From the IMG/VR virus record IMGVR_UViG_3300037467_000294, positions 1 through 61,157 of that record: a stretch of 61,157 nucleotides of DNA; one strand, given 5' to 3'. Of the stretch, positions 6,371 through 53,916 are shown one piece after another. The DNA is from a virus. Lineage: Duplodnaviria; Caudoviricetes. The notes under the pieces were generated by a model. The model worked only from the letters and a program-made list of their open reading frames with translations, searched no databases and was not told where the DNA came from. Within the stretch, counting starts at the first letter, position 1. Each line of letters opens with the position of its first letter. The translations under genes and the position numbers were made by a program.

Positions 6371-6649
6371 TTAGTTAAGTTGCAATTTCTGTTGAATCAG
6401 CCACGCCTTCAGCAATGGCAGTTGTTTGTACTGGTACGGCACACCGTAGTCGTAGTCCGTCCATCGTCCTTCCCCGTCCAGCAGGCTAAAAGCCGTGATG
6501 TTGAACACGCCCGACACGCCTTCAGGATAGTGGTCGTAGAACGCCTCGAAGAAGGGGGAACGCTGTAACATAAGCGTCCCGTCCGACAGAAGGATCAAGA
6601 CCAGTCCGGTGTTGCCGACAGGCACTTCCAGAAAGGTCAGCGTGGTCAT
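6371..6649 (-). CDS. Hypothetical protein
   Basis: ORF translationally coupled in the operon. Confidence 0.65.
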   Translation of the reverse strand: MTTLTFLEVPVGNTGLVLILLSDGTLMLQRSPFFEAFYDHYPEGVSGVFNITAFSLLDGEGRWTDYDYGVPYQYKQLPLLKAWLIQQKLQLN

Positions 6650-6879
6650 TTCAGCCAGCCCAGTTCGATTGCTTTATTCAGGGCTTTGACGAGGTTGCGG
6701 GCATGCTCTGCGGAATTCACGTACACATAGTCCCCGGAGCCGTCGTATAGCTTCACATCAGCCCCTTCCGTATGCGGTTCGATCCGGCTGGCCTGATAAC
6801 TCCCGTCAGGGGCTTTGCCGTCTGCGAACACCAGTTGATCGATCTTCTCTTCACCTTCGTTACGTACGTCGTAAATCAT
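6646..6879 (-). CDS. Hypothetical protein
   Basis: ORF with AACCAAGGAG leader. Confidence 0.75.
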   Translation of the reverse strand: MIYDVRNEGEEKIDQLVFADGKAPDGSYQASRIEPHTEGADVKLYDGSGDYVYVNSAEHARNLVKALNKAIELGWLK

Positions 6880-6910
6880 ATTGCTCTCCTTGGTTAGTTG
6901 GTAGTGCTAC

Positions 6911-11233: not shown

Positions 11234-11258
11234 ATTTTCTCTCCTTTACATGGTTGGT

Positions 11259-11334
11259 TGGTAGGTCGTGTAGGATTTGAACCTACAACCAATGGCCTAG
11301 AACACCACTGCTCTATCCGTTGAGCTAACGACCC
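11259..11334 (-). tRNA. tRNA-Arg(TCT)
   Basis: GGGTCGT acceptor, D-loop with A20, anticodon loop GT-TCT-AG, TTCAAAT T-loop and encoded CCA. Confidence 0.88.
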
Positions 11335-12349: not shown

Positions 12350-12412
12350 AATTTTCTCTCCTAAGATTTAGTTGGTTGGTTGCGGTCCGGAGTGGTTTGC
12401 TCCAGAACCGCT

Positions 12413-15178: not shown

Positions 15179-15493
15179 TTAATTAATAGCTTCCGCCAGT
15201 TTAATCGCTTTGTCGAACGCTGACAGCACTTCCTCGTGGGTATGGTTGTCATTGTAGTTCGCAACACTCCCGCCCATTACTTCATCGATAGTCATGTACG
15301 CCTTCTCGGCGTCGAAGAAATCGGTTCCGATAACGGCTTCGATAGCACCGAGGGAACAGAAGCAAACTGCCCCTTCGCTATAACCGCTCATCAATTTGTT
15401 GCCATTCTCGTCCCGTGCGAATTCGCCTTGGGTCCAGTTGGCGGGGTTCTCGATTTTGGCTTTAGCAGCCTTCAAAATTTCAACAGCATCCAT
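15179..15493 (-). CDS. Hypothetical protein (WxQG...CxxGAI...ND phage family)
   Basis: Start MDAVEIL with CCAACCAAGGAG leader. Confidence 0.75.
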   Translation of the reverse strand: MDAVEILKAAKAKIENPANWTQGEFARDENGNKLMSGYSEGAVCFCSLGAIEAVIGTDFFDAEKAYMTIDEVMGGSVANYNDNHTHEEVLSAFDKAIKLAEAIN

Positions 15494-15561
15494 TTCATCT
15501 CCTTGGTTGGTTGCGACAGGTAAGATAGTAACGCTACCTACCCTACCTGTCAACAACTATT

Positions 15562-20209: not shown

Positions 20210-20464
20210 TTACCCTTTCTTGTGTAGTTTGCTATGCAGGAAGGTAGACGTAATGCTACCAAGCCCGCCTCCGAGGCCGATTGCCAAGACGACCCACCCC
20301 ATTCCGTTGTGGACCACGTTGAGCAGGATGATAGCCTCGCATGCAGCCATCACCATACTCGTCGGCAGAATCCACCAGTACTTCCTGTGTATCACATTGA
20401 GCTGCTGAAACGACCGCAGCCCGATGTTCAGGAAGCTCGTAATGAACGCTAGGAAGTAAATCAC
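20210..20464 (-). CDS. Small multi-TM membrane protein
   Basis: Three hydrophobic segments. Confidence 0.7.
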   Translation of the reverse strand: MIYFLAFITSFLNIGLRSFQQLNVIHRKYWWILPTSMVMAACEAIILLNVVHNGMGWVVLAIGLGGGLGSITSTFLHSKLHKKG

Positions 20465-21759
20465 TTCTGATCCAGCGTGTAGTGCTTCGGGTTCTTCCCG
20501 GCGTGAAGCTCGTTCAGGCTCTTCACGATGTCCTTCAGGGCGTCACGTTCCTTCAGGTATCCCGACATCTTCAAGCGGTCATCGATCAGCATACCGGCAG
20601 CACGGGCTTCCAGCAGGATTGCGATGTTCGCCAGCACGCCACCGAGATTCGGCACGCCGTCAGCCGGGTCGAACTCTTCGCCAGCAGCCCACGCGTTCAG
20701 GTGACGCATTGCAGCAGCGATGTAGATCGACGCTTCCACCGGAGTGTTGGCGAAGTTGGCCTTGCCGTACTTCAGCGAACCGTTGTACAGACCGAGTGCA
20801 CCGTACGCGGATGCCAGCGGGCTCCACATATTCAGCGGGACCGATTGCACACCGTACTGCTTCTTCGGGTTCGTATCCGGAGCTTTTGCGTCGATTTCCG
20901 CACACATACTCATGAACCGCTCGCTCGTGGATTCCACCGGGATTGCTAGCGGTTTGCCGATGCTGTCAGCCAGTGCATCCACCATCTCTTCCTGCGTGAC
21001 GGTCTTCGTCACACGCTCGCTCTCCGGTTGGATACGGTACGCTACGATGTCGCCACCATTACCTTTGTGCTCCCAGTAGCATTTGTCCGTGTTCTGACTG
21101 GCTACGTTCGAATTGAACCCGGCCCGGAACTTGATTTGCACGTAGTCTTCAGCTTTTACCGGGCACGAGCCACCAGTCCATTTGATCCATTCGCCTTCAA
21201 CCGTTACCGGCTTCGGCTTGTGCGTGTTACGCGCATGGACCTTGTAGCTGACGATGGTAGAAGAACCGATATCGTTCGCCCAGTTCCATACGCCTGCGTT
21301 CGCAGTGTGAACTTCACCGCTTGCGAACTTGACTGACACAATCTCGTCCTTCCGAACCGGGCAACCGACGAAGCAGTTCTTTCGTGCCGTCGCATCCCAC
21401 TTACGCTTTGCACGGCACTTCTTCGATTCCTTGTTCTCACGGCGCTTGATGGCCTTCACTTCTGCGGCGGCTTCCATTACGTATTCGCGAGTTACCTCCT
21501 TGAAAGGAGTGTCGCCAGCCTCGATATACTGGTTCGGTGTCGCGTGAGGGTCCGAACTGTGCATCAGTTGGCCGTCTGGGTGTATGGAAATGTACGTCCG
21601 CGCGCTATCATTGATGTCACGGGTGACGCCGCTCTTCCACCGTGCCCACGTGAAGCCCATCGTGAAGAGCGCCTTTTGCAGTTCTGCGTCAGGTCCGTAA
21701 CCGATTCGCACATACGTGTTCTTCAACTTCGACGTGATTGCTGCGGTTGCTTTACTCAT
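20461..21759 (-). CDS. Multidomain protein with C-terminal dATP/dGTP diphosphohydrolase (DUF5664-like) domain
   Basis: TNPK...GSLKYGKANF...AAMRHL...GEEFDPADGVPNL...IDDR; two CPV...IVxY repeats upstream; start MSKATAA. Confidence 0.8.
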   Translation of the reverse strand: MSKATAAITSKLKNTYVRIGYGPDAELQKALFTMGFTWARWKSGVTRDINDSARTYISIHPDGQLMHSSDPHATPNQYIEAGDTPFKEVTREYVMEAAAEVKAIKRRENKESKKCRAKRKWDATARKNCFVGCPVRKDEIVSVKFASGEVHTANAGVWNWANDIGSSTIVSYKVHARNTHKPKPVTVEGEWIKWTGGSCPVKAEDYVQIKFRAGFNSNVASQNTDKCYWEHKGNGGDIVAYRIQPESERVTKTVTQEEMVDALADSIGKPLAIPVESTSERFMSMCAEIDAKAPDTNPKKQYGVQSVPLNMWSPLASAYGALGLYNGSLKYGKANFANTPVEASIYIAAAMRHLNAWAAGEEFDPADGVPNLGGVLANIAILLEARAAGMLIDDRLKMSGYLKERDALKDIVKSLNELHAGKNPKHYTLDQK

Positions 21760-21785
21760 ATTTTCTCCTTGGTTGGTTGGTAGTG

Positions 21786-26707: not shown

Positions 26708-27850
26708 TCACTTCCCTGTGGCAATCAGATAACTGTTCGATACAGCCTTGAAGCTGAAGTCACGGTCCATAGCCTTCGCTACGAAACCTTCCCGCTTTAC
26801 CCCTGCATTATCACTTGGACCTTCTGCGTAATCAAGGCACTTCGCAACGATGTCATCACCGGGTTTGTACCCAACAACGTCACGTAACGTCCCTTCGGCA
26901 AGGATCGTAACATGCGGGATACTCAGTTGACGGCAGAAGTCTTGCCGCTGCTTAGGCAGCATGTACTCTTGTCTATCGATGGAGAACACATCGAAGCAGT
27001 GCACTTCGACATCATCCACCTTCTCATAGTTACCCTGAATATCCGGCGCTACAAGCTCAAGCTGGACAGCGACCGAACCTTTAAAATAGTTCAGCTCGTC
27101 CAGAACTTTTGCAGCACCCTTGTGAAAGTTAGTGCTACCTTCCAGCTTCAGTTGCAAATTACGGGAGCAGATACCGTACACAGGTTCAGCCTTCTTGAAG
27201 AAGTTAAGAAATCGCTGACCGAACGACAGTTCCTTATTATCTCGCGCTTTTGCATCCTTGTAGTACGGCGAATCCGGCATTACCTTAAATACCGTAAGAG
27301 AGCTTCCATCCTTCTTCAGTGAAAATTCGAATTCCGTGTCGAGGCTCTGCTCTACCATACGTCCAAAGTTTTGCACGCGTTCCTGATCCGTTTTACGGAT
27401 GTAATAAGGGAACGGTCTGTTTTTGGCTCCGGTTGCTGCACCGTTGTTCGCAGCTTTCTCTTCCGGTGCTTCCCACTTCTGGACGCCGAGGGCTTCGGTA
27501 ACGTCCATGCCACGGCTTTCAGCCGGGATGCGTTCGTAGTCTGGGACCACACTCAGCGGAAGCAGCAGACCTTGCGACAGCGTTTTGCGCAGCTTGATCG
27601 TCTTCAGGCGCTCGCCCTTGATGCCGTTGTATTCCTTCGGTTCGTAGCCTTCTTTCGTCAGGAACGGGGCGACGGTGTTCGGGACAAAACTGTCGATTTC
27701 GAAGTAGACGGCCAGTTGGCCTTCGGTGAACTCGCCCTTCTTCACGACGACTTGCCAGCCATCGACCAGAGCGATTTCGATCTTGTCTGCACCAGCGATG
27801 GGCAGGATTTGTTTGATGCGACGGATGGTCGCCAGTTTGCGTTCAGCCAT
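26708..27850 (-). CDS. ATP-dependent RNA ligase (DRB0094/Rnl5 family)
   Basis: N-terminal RKLATIRRI..IAGADKIE, KTDQERVQN, KKDGSS, REGFV and SFKAVS. Confidence 0.9.
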   Translation of the reverse strand: MAERKLATIRRIKQILPIAGADKIEIALVDGWQVVVKKGEFTEGQLAVYFEIDSFVPNTVAPFLTKEGYEPKEYNGIKGERLKTIKLRKTLSQGLLLPLSVVPDYERIPAESRGMDVTEALGVQKWEAPEEKAANNGAATGAKNRPFPYYIRKTDQERVQNFGRMVEQSLDTEFEFSLKKDGSSLTVFKVMPDSPYYKDAKARDNKELSFGQRFLNFFKKAEPVYGICSRNLQLKLEGSTNFHKGAAKVLDELNYFKGSVAVQLELVAPDIQGNYEKVDDVEVHCFDVFSIDRQEYMLPKQRQDFCRQLSIPHVTILAEGTLRDVVGYKPGDDIVAKCLDYAEGPSDNAGVKREGFVAKAMDRDFSFKAVSNSYLIATGK

Positions 27851-27898
27851 TGTTTCTCTCCTTGTTCAGTTTGGTTGGTTGTTCACGTTACGTGAACG

Positions 27899-29910: not shown

Positions 29911-30236
29911 TTCTTGCCTCCTTTACGCAGAATTTTAATCATGTTGTCCAGCATCAGGAAGCGCCACGCCTGAATCTGCTCTGGCGTCATCTTGTCCACA
30001 GCCAATCGGCCGAACTTCTCCCGCAACAGGCTGGTCATGAATACTTCACCTTGGAGATGGGCGTCCACAAGGTCTTCCAACTCTTTCGGGGTTTGCCCCT
30101 TGGGAGATGCCGCCGACAGAGCGTAGCACACCCACGTGTTCAAACCCTTTGGACGGATACCTTTACCATCCCACAGAAACTCCTTGGCCTTCTGGCAGAT
30201 GGCGATGAGTTCCGATTTGGTGTACGTACGGGACAT
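29907..30236 (-). CDS. Hypothetical protein
   Basis: Coupled ORF with GGAGG RBS. Confidence 0.7.
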   Translation of the reverse strand: MSRTYTKSELIAICQKAKEFLWDGKGIRPKGLNTWVCYALSAASPKGQTPKELEDLVDAHLQGEVFMTSLLREKFGRLAVDKMTPEQIQAWRFLMLDNMIKILRKGGKK

Positions 30237-30553
30237 TATGCAGCCTCCAGTTGTTCGGTGTAACGTGCGATCAGCGTATCGATCATTTCGATCCGGGCTG
30301 CTTCGACAATCGGGTCGTAGTTGTCGTAGTGCTTTCCGTTCTTGTCACTGAGCCAGTTCTGAACACCGAACGAGCCGTCGATGTACTTGTCGATATCCGC
30401 ACAGATCGCCTCGCCTGCCGGGGTCGTGCTGTAGTCCAGTTGGCAGTTGATGTTGTCGCAGACGTACGGCGAATCGTTGCTCTTGGCTTCGCGGAGTTCC
30501 TTCACTTCCTTGAGGATGTCGATCTGCTGTTGCAGTTGGTTCTTGTCGGTCAT
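30236..30553 (-). CDS. Hypothetical protein
   Basis: First gene of the arm; CCAACCAAGGAG leader. Confidence 0.75.
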   Translation of the reverse strand: MTDKNQLQQQIDILKEVKELREAKSNDSPYVCDNINCQLDYSTTPAGEAICADIDKYIDGSFGVQNWLSDKNGKHYDNYDPIVEAARIEMIDTLIARYTEQLEAA

Positions 30554-30652
30554 TGTTCACTCCTTGGTTGGTTGGTGTGATTCGCATTCTCCACGAAAAA
30601 TTTTTCCGTGTCAAGTAGGTAGTGCTACTTATTTTCGTTCCCGGCAGATTTT

Positions 30653-45733: not shown

Positions 45734-46242
45734 TTTCTCTCCTTGTGCCAACTTTGGCCTTTGATAATACGATTCACTTGGGAAGTACCGATGCCGAATG
45801 TCCTCGCCAACTGCGCCTGAGACTCGCCAGCACTGTGCAACGCACGGATTTCAATCACCTGTGCAGCCGTAAGCTTCGACGTTACGCACTTCTCGCCTGC
45901 TGAGTCTGTCAATCCGGCTTGCCAAGCGTGATCGACTTGCTCTTGCATCGTGCTCCATTCGAGATTGGTATGCACGTTGTTTTCCGTGTTTCCGTCCTTA
46001 TGGTTCACCGTGGGCTTGTTATCCGGGTTCGGAACAAACGCTTCAGCTACGAGTCGATGTATGTAGTGCTTCTTAACCTTCCCGTCTTTTGACAGGCGAA
46101 CGTAGAGGTAATACTTATTACCATTCTTCTTCCGTTGGCGCTGAGGTTTCATGAACTTGAAACCCTTCACACTCCACACAGCACCATCCTCGAAGACATC
46201 GTAATCGTACCCCGCTACGCGTGCATAGCGAAGTACGCCCAT
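45730..46242 (-). CDS. HNH homing endonuclease with C-terminal HTH
   Basis: IHRLVAEAFVPNPDNKPTVNHKDGNTENNVHTNLEW. Confidence 0.9.
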   Translation of the reverse strand: MGVLRYARVAGYDYDVFEDGAVWSVKGFKFMKPQRQRKKNGNKYYLYVRLSKDGKVKKHYIHRLVAEAFVPNPDNKPTVNHKDGNTENNVHTNLEWSTMQEQVDHAWQAGLTDSAGEKCVTSKLTAAQVIEIRALHSAGESQAQLARTFGIGTSQVNRIIKGQSWHKERK

Positions 46243-47441
46243 TACGCCCCCTTGCAGCAGAGCACGGCTTTCAAACGATGCACTACTTCAATCAGCGAAG
46301 CCTGATTCGCCATCACCGTTTCGATGTCTTTGTAGCTCGACGGGATTTCGTCCAGTACGGCATCATCCTTGCGGCATTCGATACCCTGCGTCTGGGCTTT
46401 CAGATCGTCCACGGTGAACATCTGGCGTGCCTTCGTACGGGACATCTTGCGACCGGAGCCGTGAGAGCACGAACAGTAGGACTCCTTGTTACCCTTACCA
46501 CGTACGATGAAGCTAGTTTGGCCCATTGCGGAAGGAATGATACCCAGATCATCTTTCCCGGCTTTGATAGCTCCCTTCCGGGTGATCCATAGGTTCTTGC
46601 CAAAGTGGTTCTCCTTCGTAACGTAGTTGTGATGGCAGTTGATCGCCTCTTCCGTGATGCCGAACGGGACCGGAATCTCGCGGCGGAGCACATCCAACAC
46701 CGCTTGCAGCATCGCCTTGCGGTTCTCCATCGCGTAGTCCTGTGCCCACTGGACAGCAGCCACGTAGTCTTCGAACAGGTCGGTTCCTTCCGGCAGGTAG
46801 GCCAGATCGCCATCCGGCAGGGTAATGTGGAACTGGTTCATCAGCTCCTTACCCTTGTTGATGTAGTACGTACCGATCATGTTGCCGATACCACGGGAGC
46901 CGGAGTGCAGCATGACCCACACATCGTCGTTCTGGTCGATGCAGATTTCGATGAAATGGTTGCCGGAGCCCAGCGTACCAAGCTGGGAAGCAGCCTTGTC
47001 AACTGCTTTAGCTTCGTTCCCGCCGAACACGGTCCGCACAGCGTCATTCAGGCCTCGCGGCAGGGACCAGTTGTGGTCTTTGTGTTGTCCGCCAGTACCC
47101 ATCGGTACGACACGTTCGATTTCGCTGCGGATGCGTGCCAGCGAGTCCGGAAGCTGGTGTGCCTTCAGCGACAGGCGGGTAGCTACCATGCCACAGCCGA
47201 TATCGACGCCGACCATCGCCGGGACGATAGCACGTTCAGTTGCTACCACGCTACCTACCGTCGAACCAATCCCGGCATGTACATCGGGCATCACTGCAAC
47301 GCCTTGTCGTGCGACGAACGGAAGTCGTGCTATGTTCTTCAACTGGTTCAATGCTTCCGTTTCAACGTCCTTCGTCCAAATCTTGATTGGAACCGAGCCC
47401 TCTTCATGCACGACCTGAGCAGCCGTAGTCTTTTCTTGCAT
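46242..47441 (-). CDS. rtcB: RtcB RNA-splicing/repair ligase
   Basis: MPDVHAG, VGVDIGCG, GTLGSGNHF, LHSGSRG, HHNY, SHGSGR and DEIPSSYK. Confidence 0.96.
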   Translation of the reverse strand: MQEKTTAAQVVHEEGSVPIKIWTKDVETEALNQLKNIARLPFVARQGVAVMPDVHAGIGSTVGSVVATERAIVPAMVGVDIGCGMVATRLSLKAHQLPDSLARIRSEIERVVPMGTGGQHKDHNWSLPRGLNDAVRTVFGGNEAKAVDKAASQLGTLGSGNHFIEICIDQNDDVWVMLHSGSRGIGNMIGTYYINKGKELMNQFHITLPDGDLAYLPEGTDLFEDYVAAVQWAQDYAMENRKAMLQAVLDVLRREIPVPFGITEEAINCHHNYVTKENHFGKNLWITRKGAIKAGKDDLGIIPSAMGQTSFIVRGKGNKESYCSCSHGSGRKMSRTKARQMFTVDDLKAQTQGIECRKDDAVLDEIPSSYKDIETVMANQASLIEVVHRLKAVLCCKGA

Positions 47442-47464
47442 TATATTCTCCTTGGTCAGTAGTG

Positions 47465-47985: not shown

Positions 47986-48014
47986 ATATTACACTACCTA
48001 CGTCTACCTGTCAA
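47986..48014 (-). promoter_or_regulatory. Sigma70 promoter
   Basis: TTGACA-17 bp-TAATAT. Confidence 0.7.
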
Positions 48015-48511
48015 GTTTTGATAGACAAAGGCTGAAGGATAGATACGATGTGTGGTTGCGTAACGCCGTACTTTCTTGCTAGCGCAACGTCCGTTATGCC
48101 GCCAGCAGCAAACTCTTTACGAATTGCGTCCTTTGTAGCATCAGTCATACTCCTGAAAGTATCCCACCGAGCCCGCATCACCGTCTTCGCTTTTTCAAGC
48201 TTTATACGATGAATCTCTTCTACCACGTGAGCGGCAGGGTAAGCGCAGACACGCGGAGCTACGTATGCCTTCAGCGCATCTTCTGCGGCCTTTAGCGCTT
48301 CGAGTGCAGCGGTCTTAGCAGGGGTTGTCGTAGGTCCGTGGCGGACATCATCTGCTTCAGGTCCGGGTGGCATTGCATCCGCCGCCCGGTATGCAGCGTA
48401 CCTCGCTTCTGATTTCGCTGCGTAATATCTCTTACTAGCTGCATCTGCGACCTTACTAAGACGCTCGTGCTCTTCTGACAGAAACCACTTTCCATCGTGC
48501 TTACTTGCCAT
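48011..48511 (-). CDS. Hypothetical protein with C-terminal HTH
   Basis: TDVALARKYGVTQPHIVSI. Confidence 0.7.
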   Translation of the reverse strand: MASKHDGKWFLSEEHERLSKVADAASKRYYAAKSEARYAAYRAADAMPPGPEADDVRHGPTTTPAKTAALEALKAAEDALKAYVAPRVCAYPAAHVVEEIHRIKLEKAKTVMRARWDTFRSMTDATKDAIRKEFAAGGITDVALARKYGVTQPHIVSILQPLSIKT

Positions 48512-48553
48512 GATTTCTCCTTGGTTGGTTGGTAGAGAGGATTGTAGTGCTAC

Positions 48554-51389: not shown

Positions 51390-51413
51390 CCACATTAACC
51401 CAAGGAGTAGAAA

Positions 51414-51782
51414 ATGGCGAAGAGCTGGAGTGAATTGACCTTGGACGAAGCAGTAGAACGGGCCAAAGGCATCTCCCGCCAAGCCCTTCACATCGCGATC
51501 AAAACGTACACAGCCAATGGCCGTACCGATATCGTAGAACAGCTTCGTCTCGTACGCAAGACCCTGAAGCGTGATAAACGCATCGCGAAGGTAGGTAAGG
51601 AGGCAGTCGAAGCCAAGGAAGCCTCAACGGCTGCATACGAGGCCCGTGTCGCGAAGATCAAGCAGATCAAGGCCCAGTTGGCGAGTGGCAGTTCTGTAGC
51701 GCAGGTAGCGAAGGATAACAACGCATCGTACGCTGTAGTCTACAGTATCGCAAAAGGGAAGACATGGGGCCGCTTGCGGTAA
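51414..51782 (+). CDS. Putative DNA-binding protein (C-terminal HTH)
   Basis: SVAQVAKDNNASYAVVYSIAKGKTW. Confidence 0.7.
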   Translation: MAKSWSELTLDEAVERAKGISRQALHIAIKTYTANGRTDIVEQLRLVRKTLKRDKRIAKVGKEAVEAKEASTAAYEARVAKIKQIKAQLASGSSVAQVAKDNNASYAVVYSIAKGKTWGRLR

Positions 51783-51785
51783 AAC

Positions 51786-51814
51786 TTGACAAGTAAGGGT
51801 TCATAGTGTAAGAT
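51786..51814 (+). promoter_or_regulatory. Promoter of the sRNA/tRNA operon
   Basis: TTGACA-17 bp-TAAGAT. Confidence 0.8.
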
Positions 51815-51865
51815 AGCAGTACGTAAGAGATAAAGCAGCCAGAAGAAACCGCTGGGTGCAGAATT

Positions 51866-52040
51866 AGAGTAGTCGCCACTTGATTTAATTTCCGAAAGGA
51901 GGTTGATCCTATCTCGATAGGCTCTAGCGTTGCAGGAGCCTTGGCGAAGTTACCGTCCCCGAAACGACACGCTACGGATTGCTCCAGTGTTGTCGTAGGC
52001 GACTACTCTTCCGTTGTTCTCCTTGGGTTGGTTGCCCGCT
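51866..52040 (+). ncRNA. Candidate structured sRNA
   Basis: 12-bp closing stem 51866-51877/51998-52009 with internal hairpins; no credible ORF. Confidence 0.55.
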
Positions 52041-52080
52041 GGCGCTTCGGCGTCCCCGTAAAAGTAAGCGGGACGAATTT

Positions 52081-52156
52081 GCCGTCTTAGCTCAGTTGGT
52101 AGAGCGACTGCCTTGTAAGCAGTGGGTCGAGGGTTCAAATCCTTCAGTCGGCACCA
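52081..52156 (+). tRNA. tRNA-Thr(TGT)
   Basis: Cloverleaf, loop CT-TGT-AA, CCA. Confidence 0.92.
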
Positions 52157-52225
52157 GAGCAGAGGGTTCCCGGTGCACTATACGAACCGGGTAGTGAAGG
52201 GAACACACGATAAAAACCGCACAAT

Positions 52226-52299
52226 CTGGGTGTAGGATAATGGTAGTCATCCTGTCTTGGATACAGGAAGCGCAAGTTCGATTCTTGCCACCCAGACCA
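52226..52299 (+). tRNA. tRNA-Pro(TGG)
   Basis: Cloverleaf, loop CT-TGG-AT, CCA. Confidence 0.9.
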
Positions 52300-52323
52300 G
52301 AATTCAGCGCGTAAGCGCAAAGC

Positions 52324-52352
52324 TTGACAAATAGTGCCACGTATGCTAATAT
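52324..52352 (+). promoter_or_regulatory. Internal sigma70 promoter in the tRNA cluster
   Basis: TTGACA-17 bp-TAATAT. Confidence 0.7.
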
Positions 52353-52458
52353 GTCACTACTTGTCGCTGTAGCAGAGTAATCGCAGAAGCGGCGTGAGTT
52401 AATCTACTCTCACTGAGGACGCCTGTACTCCAAGAAACAGAAGCAGGACAAGAACAAT

Positions 52459-52532
52459 TGCGGTGTGGTGTAACGGTTAGCACAATGGGCTCATAATCCG
52501 AAAGACCAGTTCGAATCTGGCATCCGCAACCA
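52459..52532 (+). tRNA. tRNA-Met(CAT), possibly initiator
   Basis: Loop CT-CAT-AA, TTCGAAT, CCA; imperfect anticodon stem. Confidence 0.78.
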
Positions 52533-52641
52533 AGATACGGTGTGACTGTTAGCCGTAGGCGTCATAGAGCGTCTGAACCCGACAGCACAGCTTAGCCTGA
52601 GCGAAATGATGGCCTCGCGGTGCAACGCTGCGTCGAACAAT

Positions 52642-53824: not shown

Positions 53825-53916
53825 GCGTGTAAGCCGAATATTGGTTAAGTCGGCGCTGACTGTAAATCAGTAGTGGGCTCGACCCGGTGGAGGTTCAATT
53901 CCTTCTGCACGCACCA
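53825..53916 (+). tRNA. tRNA-Tyr(GTA)
   Basis: Loop CT-GTA-AA, long variable arm, ACCA. Confidence 0.88.

Follow-up and report, generated by a model that had tools for sequence, protein, structure and literature searches.

Can a phage repress a whole class of its own genes with an RNA made at the head of its tRNA operon? The question arises in an uncultured soil phage of the Felix O1/PAK_P3-related, lytic-type group, represented by a 61,157-nt stretch of DNA (the whole of it hereafter called the window). Plus-strand positions 52016-52034, just ahead of the tRNA cluster, read GTTCTCCTTGGGTTGGTTG. The reverse complement, CAACCAACCCAAGGAGAAC, is the ribosome-binding leader of many minus-strand genes, CAACCAACCAAGGAGAA, with one inserted C (0 substitutions, 1 insertion and 0 deletions across the 17-mer in an indel-tolerant scan). 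A preliminary description had claimed complementarity over about 17 nt with one bulge, and this is what we find, the bulge being one extra G.

The leader is a recurrent minus-strand element. With up to three mismatches allowed, the 17-mer occurs 10 times, always on the minus strand, against an expected 0.11 (100 shuffles, none of which reached 10); an indel-tolerant scan of the window returns 19 minus-strand copies and 1 weak plus-strand match. All six genes that had been named as sharing the leader do carry it, at 2479-2497 and at the first five positions in the following list, which also gives two genes of RNA repair.

48515-48531, minus strand: exact leader copy of gene 48011-48511, with ATG 3 nt downstream
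21763-21779, minus strand: exact leader copy of gene 20461-21759 (leader scans)
15497-15513, minus strand: leader copy with 1 mismatch, gene 15179-15493, 12 nt past a TTGACA/TACTAT promoter-like site
30558-30574, minus strand: leader copy with 2 mismatches, gene 30236-30553 (leader scans)
6884-6900, minus strand: leader copy with 2 mismatches, gene 6646-6879 (leader scans)
27865-27881, minus strand: leader-like tract upstream of the RNA ligase gene 26708-27850 (leader scans)
47446-47462, minus strand: degenerate leader upstream of the RtcB-type RNA ligase gene 46242-47441 (leader scans)

An ATG or GTG lies within 25 nt past every minus-strand copy except 52017-52034, mostly at a distance of about 8 nt or less; the copies at 12367-12382 and 27865-27881 have a separate Shine-Dalgarno (SD) sequence and a start codon farther downstream. 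Past 52017-52034 itself, neither ATG, GTG nor TTG follows within 15 nt, which bears out the claim that the minus strand has no ATG after it. On the arm opposite the tRNAs, genes with the leader and SD of this type include ones for replication, nucleotide metabolism and RNA repair, and their 5' leaders are very short. Across orthologues the leader is retained at some genes and lost at others, as judged from crude gene calls that miss many orthologues.

The antisense segment at 52016-52034 belongs to a conserved structured non-coding RNA of about 260 nt. It had been ascribed to a plus-strand transcript from the tRNA-operon promoter, and it does sit within a predicted promoter-driven non-coding RNA upstream of the tRNAs. 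The simple linear antisense segment first envisaged gives way, however, to a multi-helix RNA set between promoter and tRNA.

51786-51814, plus strand: sigma-70-like promoter TTGACA-17-TAAGAT, 10/12 consensus matches, upstream of the RNA and the first tRNAs
51821-52080, plus strand: structured non-coding leader RNA of the tRNA operon, ~260 nt, no credible ORF, MFE -93.9 kcal/mol, z = -3.08, nine homologues
52081-52156, plus strand: tRNA-Thr(UGU), first of the tRNA cluster, directly 3' of the RNA in 6/7 homologues tested (ARAGORN)

The 5' end of the RNA is placed from the promoter, and its 3' end from the cut that RNase P presumably makes where tRNA-Thr begins. Pattern scans, together with a model search of selected loci, yielded nine distinct homologues in uncultured phage and metagenome contigs. 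They were recovered through three different motifs, two of them outside the anti-leader. The RNA always heads the tRNA cluster, and TTGACA with a -10-like hexamer of variable sequence occupies the same place in all nine homologues. Three further pattern-scan finds with a common 31-nt pattern, L046 and L047 from metagenomes and L056 within an ORF of an Acidobacteria MAG, were rejected as members (by model, E = 2.1, 2.8, and 0.05 over 14 nt). Among five cultured relatives (vB_PseuGesM_254, Boevelstad, PAK_P3, phiA047 and KLEP7), the RNA model R1 gave no meaningful hit in any (best E = 0.99, 7.5 bits).

Rfam holds no counterpart of this RNA. Searches of the window at the gathering threshold and of 51700-52500 at E up to 10 returned nothing over the anti-leader and nothing reaching a family threshold at the RNA; the sole overlap in the window was a chance-level match to CC2171, at 16.1 bits where the gathering score is 75. 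The homologous places of seven relatives likewise gave no Rfam match. The RNA at 51821-52080 is a real, new and uncatalogued structured phage RNA.

Compensatory change supports the fold. In the alignment, 15 of 45 pairs changed on both sides, against 6.4±1.5 in shuffles (0/500 reach 15) and 1-5 in slid controls, and 95.8% of 400 cells are paired. G-U pairs account for 45 of these 400 cells and would read A-C on the opposite strand; these pairs, the UUCG and GAAA loops and the promoter all point to an RNA made from the plus strand. At least six helices are supported by covariation. The parts of the RNA are, from 5' to 3':

51835-51859, plus strand: H1 hairpin GCAGCCAG / CUGGGUGC with loop AAGAAACCG; arms co-vary in the alignment, e.g. 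GCUUCUAG/CUGGAAGC and GAAGCAG/CUGCUUC
51867-51877 (5' strand) and 51998-52008 (3' strand), plus strand: H2 long-range helix, 11 pairs, 100% of cells paired, 5 double-sided changes
51892-51909, plus strand: CCGAAAGGAGGUUGAUCC, near-invariant internal Shine-Dalgarno-like element with a GAAA loop, identical in 7/9 homologues
51919-51941, plus strand: H4 hairpin with conserved loop CGUUGCA, all 6 pairs changed on both sides
51964-51996, plus strand: H5 hairpin with conserved apical GGA-UUGC-UCC, 13 pairs, 3 double-sided, A-U/G-U alternation at 51978/51983
52017-52024, plus strand: anti-leader part A, UUCUCCUU, which complements AAGGAGAA; UUCUCCU invariant in 9/9 homologues
52024-52038, plus strand: anti-leader part B, HL hairpin, UGGG 52024-52027 / CCCG 52035-52038; stem covaries, 9/9 homologues
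52041-52054, plus strand: H6 hairpin GGCGC-UUCG-GCGUC, sequence or size differing in each lineage
52055-52072, plus strand: H7 terminal hairpin CCCGU / GCGGG with conserved loop AAAAGUAA; stem covaries (CCCGC/GCGGG, CCCGG/CCGGG, GACGG/CCGUC)
52073-52080, plus strand: A/U-rich tail ACGAAUUU ahead of the tRNA (sequence, alignment)

The anti-leader lies between the central multi-helix domain and the two 3' hairpins, and is kept in all nine homologues. Its two parts together complement CAACCAA-CC-AAGGAGAA. Part B presents a seven-base invariant loop, UUGGUUG (52028-52034), complementary to CAACCAA, on a stem of 4-6 pairs in 9/9 homologues that falls into four families: UGGG/CCCG (with variants UGGG/CCCA and UUGGG/CCCGA), CUUGG/CCAAG, GGUCG/CGAUC and UUGGUG/CACCAA. 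An invariant loop on a covarying stem is a geometry that, judged from sequence, suits antisense recognition, and UUGG, with which the loop opens, presumably conforms to YUNR, the U-turn motif of loops that take part in antisense recognition. Because both halves of the anti-leader are invariant in 9/9 homologues, several of which were recovered through motifs elsewhere in the RNA, the complementarity is not a product of chance.

Pairing with the leader is predicted to be strong. Against the exact leader, the anti-leader forms a predicted duplex of -26.3 kcal/mol, compared with -8.9 for a 16S-type tail against the same leader. In the manner of an anti-SD sRNA seed, the invariant UUCUCCU and UUGGUUG complement 10-19 leader copies in the window. 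Predicted accessibility is ordinary, the mean unpaired probability of the two parts being 0.27-0.72 and 0.16-0.62 against 0.36-0.42 for the whole RNA. No conserved intramolecular partner of part A was found; a search for partners of the anti-leader within the RNA is uninformative for a segment this invariant and G/U-rich. A near-invariant AAAGGAGG within the RNA could mask part A.

Candidate targets concentrate on the arm opposite the tRNAs. By a crude in-house ORF and SD picker, on which the gene counts by arm rest, AAGGAGAA occurs at 72/209 GGAG-type ribosome-binding sites (RBSs) of the opposite arm versus 5/78 of the tRNA arm when six genomes are pooled. The bias has the same direction in each of the six, with a pooled odds ratio of 7.7 and Fisher p = 4e-7 over genomes that are related, not independent. 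In the window, AACCAACC tracts lie upstream of the SD in 10/30 opposite-arm genes versus 0/12 tRNA-arm genes. Predicted duplexes of -18 kcal/mol or stronger involve 12-20 of 43-55 opposite-arm genes versus 2-6 of 23-59 tRNA-arm genes in each of the six genomes.

Shuffling the G/U-rich 3' part alone lowered the number of well-paired genes in the window only modestly (16 observed against a shuffle mean of 11.5 and a maximum of 18). A/C-rich leaders will pair with G/U-rich tracts of any kind. In a duplex scan of the whole genome the leaders did not stand out from background, and the best energies were much the same when the query was reversed as a control. Across relatives, CAACCAACC leaders on the opposite arm range from 1/37 to 10/30 genes (1/37 in G002, 4/33 in G005, and none beyond the locus itself in G007, a 53%-complete contig), while the loop is invariant throughout. 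The anti-leader linker varies by indels (G, none, UG, UCG) that find no counterpart in the leaders of the same phage.

The RNA had been suggested to explain the conservation of the leader, but this conservation does not require it. An identical 19-mer is a working RBS leader in five unrelated phage contigs, and an RNA-model search of the whole records of these five phages (one 100% complete, the others 19-50%) found no homologue. The same leader serves unrelated phages in which the RNA was not found.

The gene immediately upstream of the RNA offers a further match on the same strand.

51397-51407, plus strand: RBS AACCCAAGGAG of gene 51414-51782, an 11-nt perfect complement of 52019-52029

In the three GGG-type phages examined, the corresponding RBS is ACCCAAGGA, and the two GG-type phages have ACCAAGGA or ACCGAGGA instead; the GGUG-type phage has no such upstream-gene RBS. 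These lineages are too few for specific targeting of the adjacent gene to count as evidence, and we set that idea aside.

Class-wide translational repression by the RNA is plausible on this sequence evidence, and we put it forward tentatively. Host RNA polymerase would transcribe the RNA from the sigma-70-like promoter heading the tRNA operon, and RNase P would most likely release it by cutting at the 5' end of tRNA-Thr. The HL loop could then nucleate pairing with an A/C-rich leader, and pairing might extend across the SD and block 30S binding. Translation of the leader gene class would fall while the tRNAs of the same transcript accumulate. We infer the transcript ends, the abundance of the RNA, its pairing in vivo and the repression alike. 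Since sigma-70-like promoters precede the RNA as well as several of the leader-bearing genes, nothing points to a temporal switch. A bolder and more doubtful proposal is that one transcript, in giving rise to tRNAs and a folded RNA, couples tRNA supply to a class-specific translational switch: with its exposed loop and adjoining strand the RNA would outbind the ribosome's anti-SD at the shared leader and SD and, as it builds up, silence the replication, nucleotide-metabolism and RNA-repair arm, and free ribosomes for the other arm.

It is possible, if rather unlikely, that the RNA is a structured leader of the tRNA operon whose UUCUCCU and UUGGUUG elements are kept for the fold itself or for contacts with the translation machinery, and that phage mRNAs are not its targets. 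An SD:anti-SD helix might be mimicked if part A paired with AAAGGAGG of the same molecule; or else the RNA might act on ribosomes, with AAAGGAGGUUGAUCC as the element that docks on the 16S rRNA 3' tail. The match to the leader would in that case be a simple consequence of what the two are, sequences of SD or anti-SD character flanked by A/C- or G/U-rich stretches. The internal SD-like element lends itself to such roles: it has no start codon at usable spacing, and it departs from its common sequence by 1-2 changes in only two homologues (GGAGG-UAAUCC in G001, ...GAUCG in G006). About 13 nt of the conserved 3' tail of 16S rRNA would be complementary to it if one extra U is allowed for; in G001 a substitution stands in place of that U. 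This tail is taken from general conservation and may not be that of the phage's host. Pairing is possible between AAGGAG (51897-51902) and CUCCUU (52019-52024), the loop is invariant even where leaders are few, and ribosomes reportedly bound GOLLD RNA in pull-downs described in part of a recent preprint (bioRxiv 10.1101/2024.12.08.627333). Against the architectural variant, the candidate partners are all invariant, so that covariation can support no intramolecular pairing of the anti-leader, and in thermodynamic folds the SD-like element is taken up by a local hairpin (unpaired probability 0.01-0.27) rather than by part A. Neither variant explains the full 17-nt match to the leader beyond the SD core. 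In another, improbable reading the HL loop recognises a tRNA 3' end, in the way of a T-box bulge, and the RNA would sense, protect or escort tRNAs. UUGGUUG does complement CAACCA(A), the 3' end of the phage tRNA-Met(CAU), which ends in CGCAACCA in 6/6 genomes examined and in the window is followed by A to give a 7-nt match (52525-52533). The consistent position of the RNA at the head of the tRNA cluster, the phage-encoded RtcB and RNA ligase, and a leader that is an ACCA-type repeat starting inside the CCA end of tRNA-Arg (11245-11260) would all fit. The match is nevertheless post hoc and only 6-7 nt long, no more than 4-5 of the matched nucleotides are single-stranded in the folded tRNA, Rfam returned no T-box or other tRNA-binding family in the window or seven relatives, and the invariant UUCUCCU beside the loop is left unexplained.

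Two further readings are both very improbable. If the site were a functionless minus-strand RBS that decayed after gene loss or inversion of a promoter-leader cassette, its absolute orientation, which matches all other copies, would be accounted for, as would a TTG 7 nt downstream in G004 that opens a 23-codon frame. Yet no relative has a minus-strand gene starting at the site, eight of nine lacking any start codon within 15 nt and the ninth having just this TTG. Both halves are invariant in 9/9 homologues while the flanking hairpins have diverged, the plus-strand stem around the loop covaries, no promoter-like site lies upstream on the minus strand, and the DNA around the site gives a plus-strand RNA fold that includes G-U pairs; on the aligned sequences, conservation largely refutes decay. 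The motif could instead act in DNA, as a strand-oriented protein-binding or initiation-region element common to all copies, the one in the RNA gene included. All copies do share a single orientation, and several lie 5-14 nt past -10-like hexamers or a recurrent GTAAGTAGCACTAC-type motif, so that the leader coincides with the transcription start region. Start-codon spacing at the other copies nevertheless indicates RBS function, no promoter-like element precedes 52017-52034 on the same strand, and covariation of the stem around the loop is a signal at the RNA level.

As a candidate class-wide repressor, the phage RNA invites comparison with small RNAs that act on many mRNAs through an anti-SD seed, such as the alphaproteobacterial alpha-r14/'cuckoo' RNAs (CcsR, NfeR1) and RsaE/RoxS of Firmicutes. 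Like them, it has a conserved pyrimidine-rich SD complement, partly in a hairpin loop, and potentially could act on a whole mRNA class. Unlike them, it matches no Rfam family, is encoded by a lytic-type phage, and is a ~260-nt RNA that has a multi-helix core and heads a tRNA operon transcript as its 5' leader. Its recognition element is single and in two parts, strand plus loop, without repeated C-rich loops, and the match goes beyond the SD, taking in 9 nt of leader upstream of it. A tRNA precursor is also the source of the external transcribed spacer that sponges sRNAs in E. coli, a short 3' spacer cut from a tRNA operon transcript. By analogy, the phage RNA would be a tRNA-precursor spacer that base-pairs after processing, but here the spacer is a 5' leader, long and structured, that keeps a conserved fold of its own; mRNA leaders, not sRNAs to be titrated, are its proposed targets.

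Other phage RNAs share its neighborhood. The band C and D RNAs of T4 are encoded in that phage's tRNA region and processed together with the tRNAs. We know of no RBS complementarity in them, and the likeness, drawn from descriptions, is one of genomic logic only. They are presented as small RNAs of a virulent phage without assigned function in part of an account (PMC4933390) that also describes sRNA1 and sRNA2 of PAK_P3, abundant ~100-nt RNAs encoded beside or among the phage's tRNA genes. Trans action is proposed there for both, as are a TψC-loop-like 11-mer and two single phage targets, not RBS leaders. The present RNA likewise adjoins tRNA genes in a related phage type: PAK_P3, a Pseudomonas phage, has ~47% DNA polymerase identity to the source phage. 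Covariance model R1 found 0 candidates in the PAK_P3 genome (NC_022970.1). GOLLD and ROOL, structured non-coding RNAs without assigned function beside tRNA islands in phages and prophages, have one trait in common with the phage RNA, the adjoining tRNAs; in the part of the source considered here (bioRxiv 10.1101/2024.12.08.627333) no anti-leader element is reported for them and many GOLLD members exceed 800 nt, compared with ~260 nt. Both are in Rfam, and their models do not match the phage RNA.

Our literature search found no virulent-phage regulatory RNA that targets the shared ribosome-binding leader of the phage's own genes. To our knowledge, very few regulatory RNAs of virulent phages have been described at all. 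The result is a new RNA family of nine members whose fold is backed by covariation and whose candidate seed is sharply delimited, which makes the hypothesis directly testable with synthetic constructs although the phage is uncultured. Should the mechanism prove false, the RNA remains a conserved, structured and unexplained molecule with invariant SD-like and anti-SD-like elements. Should it prove true, a phage could switch translation between gene classes without a protein factor, and some of the many unexplained RNAs beside phage tRNA clusters may have found a possible function.

The segment at 52016-52034 is part of a conserved, real and previously uncatalogued structured phage RNA. The surrounding ~260 plus-strand nucleotides hold no credible ORF and separate a sigma-70-like promoter from a tRNA-Thr gene on a 61-kb IMG/VR viral contig (estimated completeness 67%). 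The DNA polymerase of this contig shares 47-50% identity with its counterparts in PAK_P3-type phages and in related phages of Pseudomonas and Aeromonas. The preliminary description had the segment read from the tRNA-operon promoter; the arrangement of promoter-like site, ORF-free stretch and tRNA-Thr stands, and transcription from that site remains a prediction from sequence. No Rfam family accounts for the region, and 261 nt of the RNA have a predicted folding energy of -93.9 kcal/mol (z = -3.08).

Features of the RNA and its flanks in the window
51786-51814, plus strand: sigma-70-like promoter, TTGACA-17-TAAGAT, directly preceding the RNA
51867-51877 with 51998-52008, plus strand: long-range helix H2, 11 pairs, 5 compensatory, among the best supported
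51919-51941, plus strand: helix H4, among the best supported
51964-51996, plus strand: helix H5, among the best supported
52016-52034, plus strand: anti-leader, GTTCTCCTTGGGTTGGTTG
52081 (start), plus strand: tRNA-Thr, with eleven further plus-strand tRNAs behind it

Pattern scans and a neighbor-protein search yielded nine distinct members including the window: seven IMG/VR contigs (G001-G005, G006 and G007) and a 3-kb metagenome contig (L048), with L049 a duplicate of G003. All nine carry TTGACA and a -10-like hexamer of variable sequence at the same position, and tRNA-Thr directly follows the RNA in six of seven homologues tested. A covariance model of the RNA (R1) found no family member in five cultured relatives including PAK_P3, and the sole match from one pattern scan of bacterial genomes was a non-member.

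Covariation supports the fold. An RNAalifold consensus on a 184-nt core predicted 45 pairs, with standard pairs in 95.8% of 400 alignment cells. Both sides changed at 15 pairs, against 6.4±1.5 in 500 shuffles, none of which reached 15; sliding partners by 1-3 columns left 1-5 such pairs. Covariation in H1, H6 and H7 was seen by eye. G-U pairs fill 45 of the 400 cells; read from the minus strand they would be A-C. These pairs, the promoter and the UUCG and GAAA loops place the RNA on the plus strand. Invariant or near-invariant elements that look unpaired include CCGAAAGGAGGUUGAUCC, CGUUGCA, GUCCCCGAA and UACGGRUUGCUCC.

Within the anti-leader, two blocks, UUCUCCU and UUGGUUGC, are unchanged in all nine members. 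Members were sought with three motifs, one of them inside the anti-leader, so this conservation is not merely an artefact of the search. The letters between the blocks vary (UGGG, UGG, UGGUG, UGGUCG, GGG), and G004 has an 11-nt insertion upstream of UUCUCCU. In every member 4-6 pairs close UUGGUUG into a seven-base loop, and linker variation is compensated in the stem, which falls into four families: UGGG/CCCG (with close variants UGGG/CCCA and UUGGG/CCCGA), CUUGG/CCAAG, GGUCG/CGAUC and UUGGUG/CACCAA. The anti-leader thus appears to combine an unpaired UUCUCCU(U) with an adjoining hairpin whose loop displays the complement of CAACCAA. The loop start, UUGG, would conform to the YUNR U-turn pattern of antisense recognition loops. 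Predicted accessibility is average, no conserved intramolecular partner could be demonstrated, and UCUCCU occurs on the plus strand of the tRNA cluster in this copy only. With its changes compensated as RNA pairs, the anti-leader is unlikely to be a DNA-level site.

Read on the minus strand, the anti-leader gives CAACCAACCCAAGGAGAAC. This differs from the 17-mer leader by a single inserted C and bears out the complementarity with one bulge described at the outset. The leader is indeed common: the window holds 10 matches with up to three mismatches where 0.11 would be expected, every one of them on the minus strand, and 19 minus-strand copies when indels are allowed. ATG or GTG follows each within 25 nt, mostly within about 8 nt, except at 52017-52034; two copies have a separate SD and a start codon further downstream. 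After the 52017-52034 copy no ATG, GTG or TTG lies within 15 nt, the missing ATG having been reported at first, and a decayed RBS, for all its likeness to a leader, is unlikely. Behind tRNA-Arg, the leader of a minus-strand gene begins inside the tRNA CCA end (11245-11260, minus strand); ACCA occurs there three times over, making the leader itself an ACCA-type repeat.

Genes behind leaders encode, among others, a helicase, a pyrophosphatase, a MazG/endolysin-like protein, an RNA ligase and RtcB. Their 5' UTR is essentially the leader alone; in several cases a -10-like hexamer or a recurrent GTAAGTAGCACTAC-type motif ends 5-14 nt before the copy begins. Several leaders and RBSs have this GTAAGTAGCACTAC / GTAACACTAC motif directly upstream (48531, 6900, 21779, 47462 and 18234, minus strand). 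It looks similar to the tRNA-operon promoter around its -10 region and start site, and possibly marks a class of phage promoters that lack a -35 element. The RtcB-type tRNA-splicing ligase (46242-47441, minus strand) and second RNA ligase (26708-27850, minus strand), both behind leader-like RBSs, suggest RNA- or tRNA-repair capacity beside the large tRNA set.

Leader-type tracts favor the arm opposite the RNA over the arm that carries it (the tRNA arm).

AACCAACC tracts (up to 1 edit) upstream of SDs, by arm; gene calls from a crude caller
Window: opposite arm 10/30, tRNA arm 0/12
G004: opposite arm 9/34, tRNA arm 1/10
G003: opposite arm 6/31, tRNA arm 0/13
G001: opposite arm 5/40, tRNA arm 0/11
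G005: opposite arm 4/33, tRNA arm 1/22
G002: opposite arm 1/37, tRNA arm 0/9

The 8-mer AAGGAGAA, an exact complement of UUCUCCUU, is steadier across genomes, occurring at 10-14 of 31-41 opposite-arm GGAG sites per genome, whereas tRNA-arm sites have it at 0-1 of 9-22. Pooled counts are 72/209 versus 5/78 (odds ratio 7.7), a comparison whose p-value overstates independence because the genomes are related. For an exact leader the duplex with the anti-leader has a predicted energy of -26.3 kcal/mol.

Other results argue against co-evolution of leader and anti-leader. Linker variants of the anti-leader are not matched by leaders within the same phage, and in G006 and G007 perfect matches occur only at the RNA locus itself. 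Energy-based scans did not single leaders out, since any A/C-rich tract pairs with a G/U-only tract. The identical 19-mer CAACCAACCCAAGGAGAAC precedes an ATG by 4-6 nt in all five distinct unrelated phage contigs examined (L003 4109-4127; L004 1612-1630, identical to L007; L008; L009; L010; GC 39-66%), leading genes for SSB, a possible major head protein and unknowns. Model R1 found no homologue of the RNA in these five records (one 100% complete, the others 19-50%). Leader conservation therefore needs no sRNA, which the preliminary description had offered as an explanation for it, and this A/C-repeat leader seems to be a strong type of RBS in wide use among phages.

The RNA's neighbors add observations of their own. 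The product of the adjoining upstream gene (51414-51782, plus strand) is 122 aa long, has no PHROG match and carries an N-terminus that looks helix-turn-helix-like by eye; the gene is kept beside the RNA in six relatives at 72 to 244 aa. Its RBS (51397-51407) is perfectly complementary to 52019-52029 over 11 nt, and its C-run tracks the anti-leader G-run in five phages, not in the sixth. At 52324-52458 (plus strand) a second consensus-like promoter (TTGACA-17-TAATAT with TG) and a ~105-nt untranslated leader, possibly another leader RNA, precede tRNA-Met. Rfam places an 89-nt tRNA at 53825-53913 (plus strand; 38.7 bits) that is absent from ARAGORN output and may be long-arm or atypical. The G007 tRNA cluster contains a below-threshold hit for YrlA, a Y RNA-like family (L017 1670-1791, minus strand; 38.7 bits, gathering score 69, E = 5e-5), of interest because phages of this group carry RtcB.

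Competing seriously with the anti-leader reading is a role directed at the ribosome or in the RNA's own architecture, possible if rather doubtful. A near-invariant SD-like element inside the RNA could mask UUCUCCU(U) or dock on the ribosome; its presumed match to the conserved 3' tail of 16S rRNA spans about 13 nt, with one extra U. A phage tRNA-Met(CAU), encoded in 6/6 genomes, has a CAACCA 3' end to which the UUGGUUG loop is complementary as well. This tRNA (52459-52532) and its homologues in G001-G005 end in CGCAACCA; the window copy has a GGG run in the anticodon stem, and these features recall initiator tRNAs, aside from an elongator-like position 11:24.

By genomic logic the RNA stands nearest to regulators cut from tRNA-precursor spacers. 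The same holds for GOLLD and ROOL, RNAs beside tRNA islands, for the T4 stable RNAs, and for PAK_P3 sRNA1/2, to which an R1 search of the PAK_P3 genome found no homology. Functionally nearest to this RNA, itself outside every Rfam family, are anti-SD sRNAs acting on many mRNAs. A trans-acting anti-leader, which would shut off leader-bearing phage mRNAs, is tentatively the single best explanation, though unproven; its display in a hairpin loop and an RBS type specific to one arm strengthen it.
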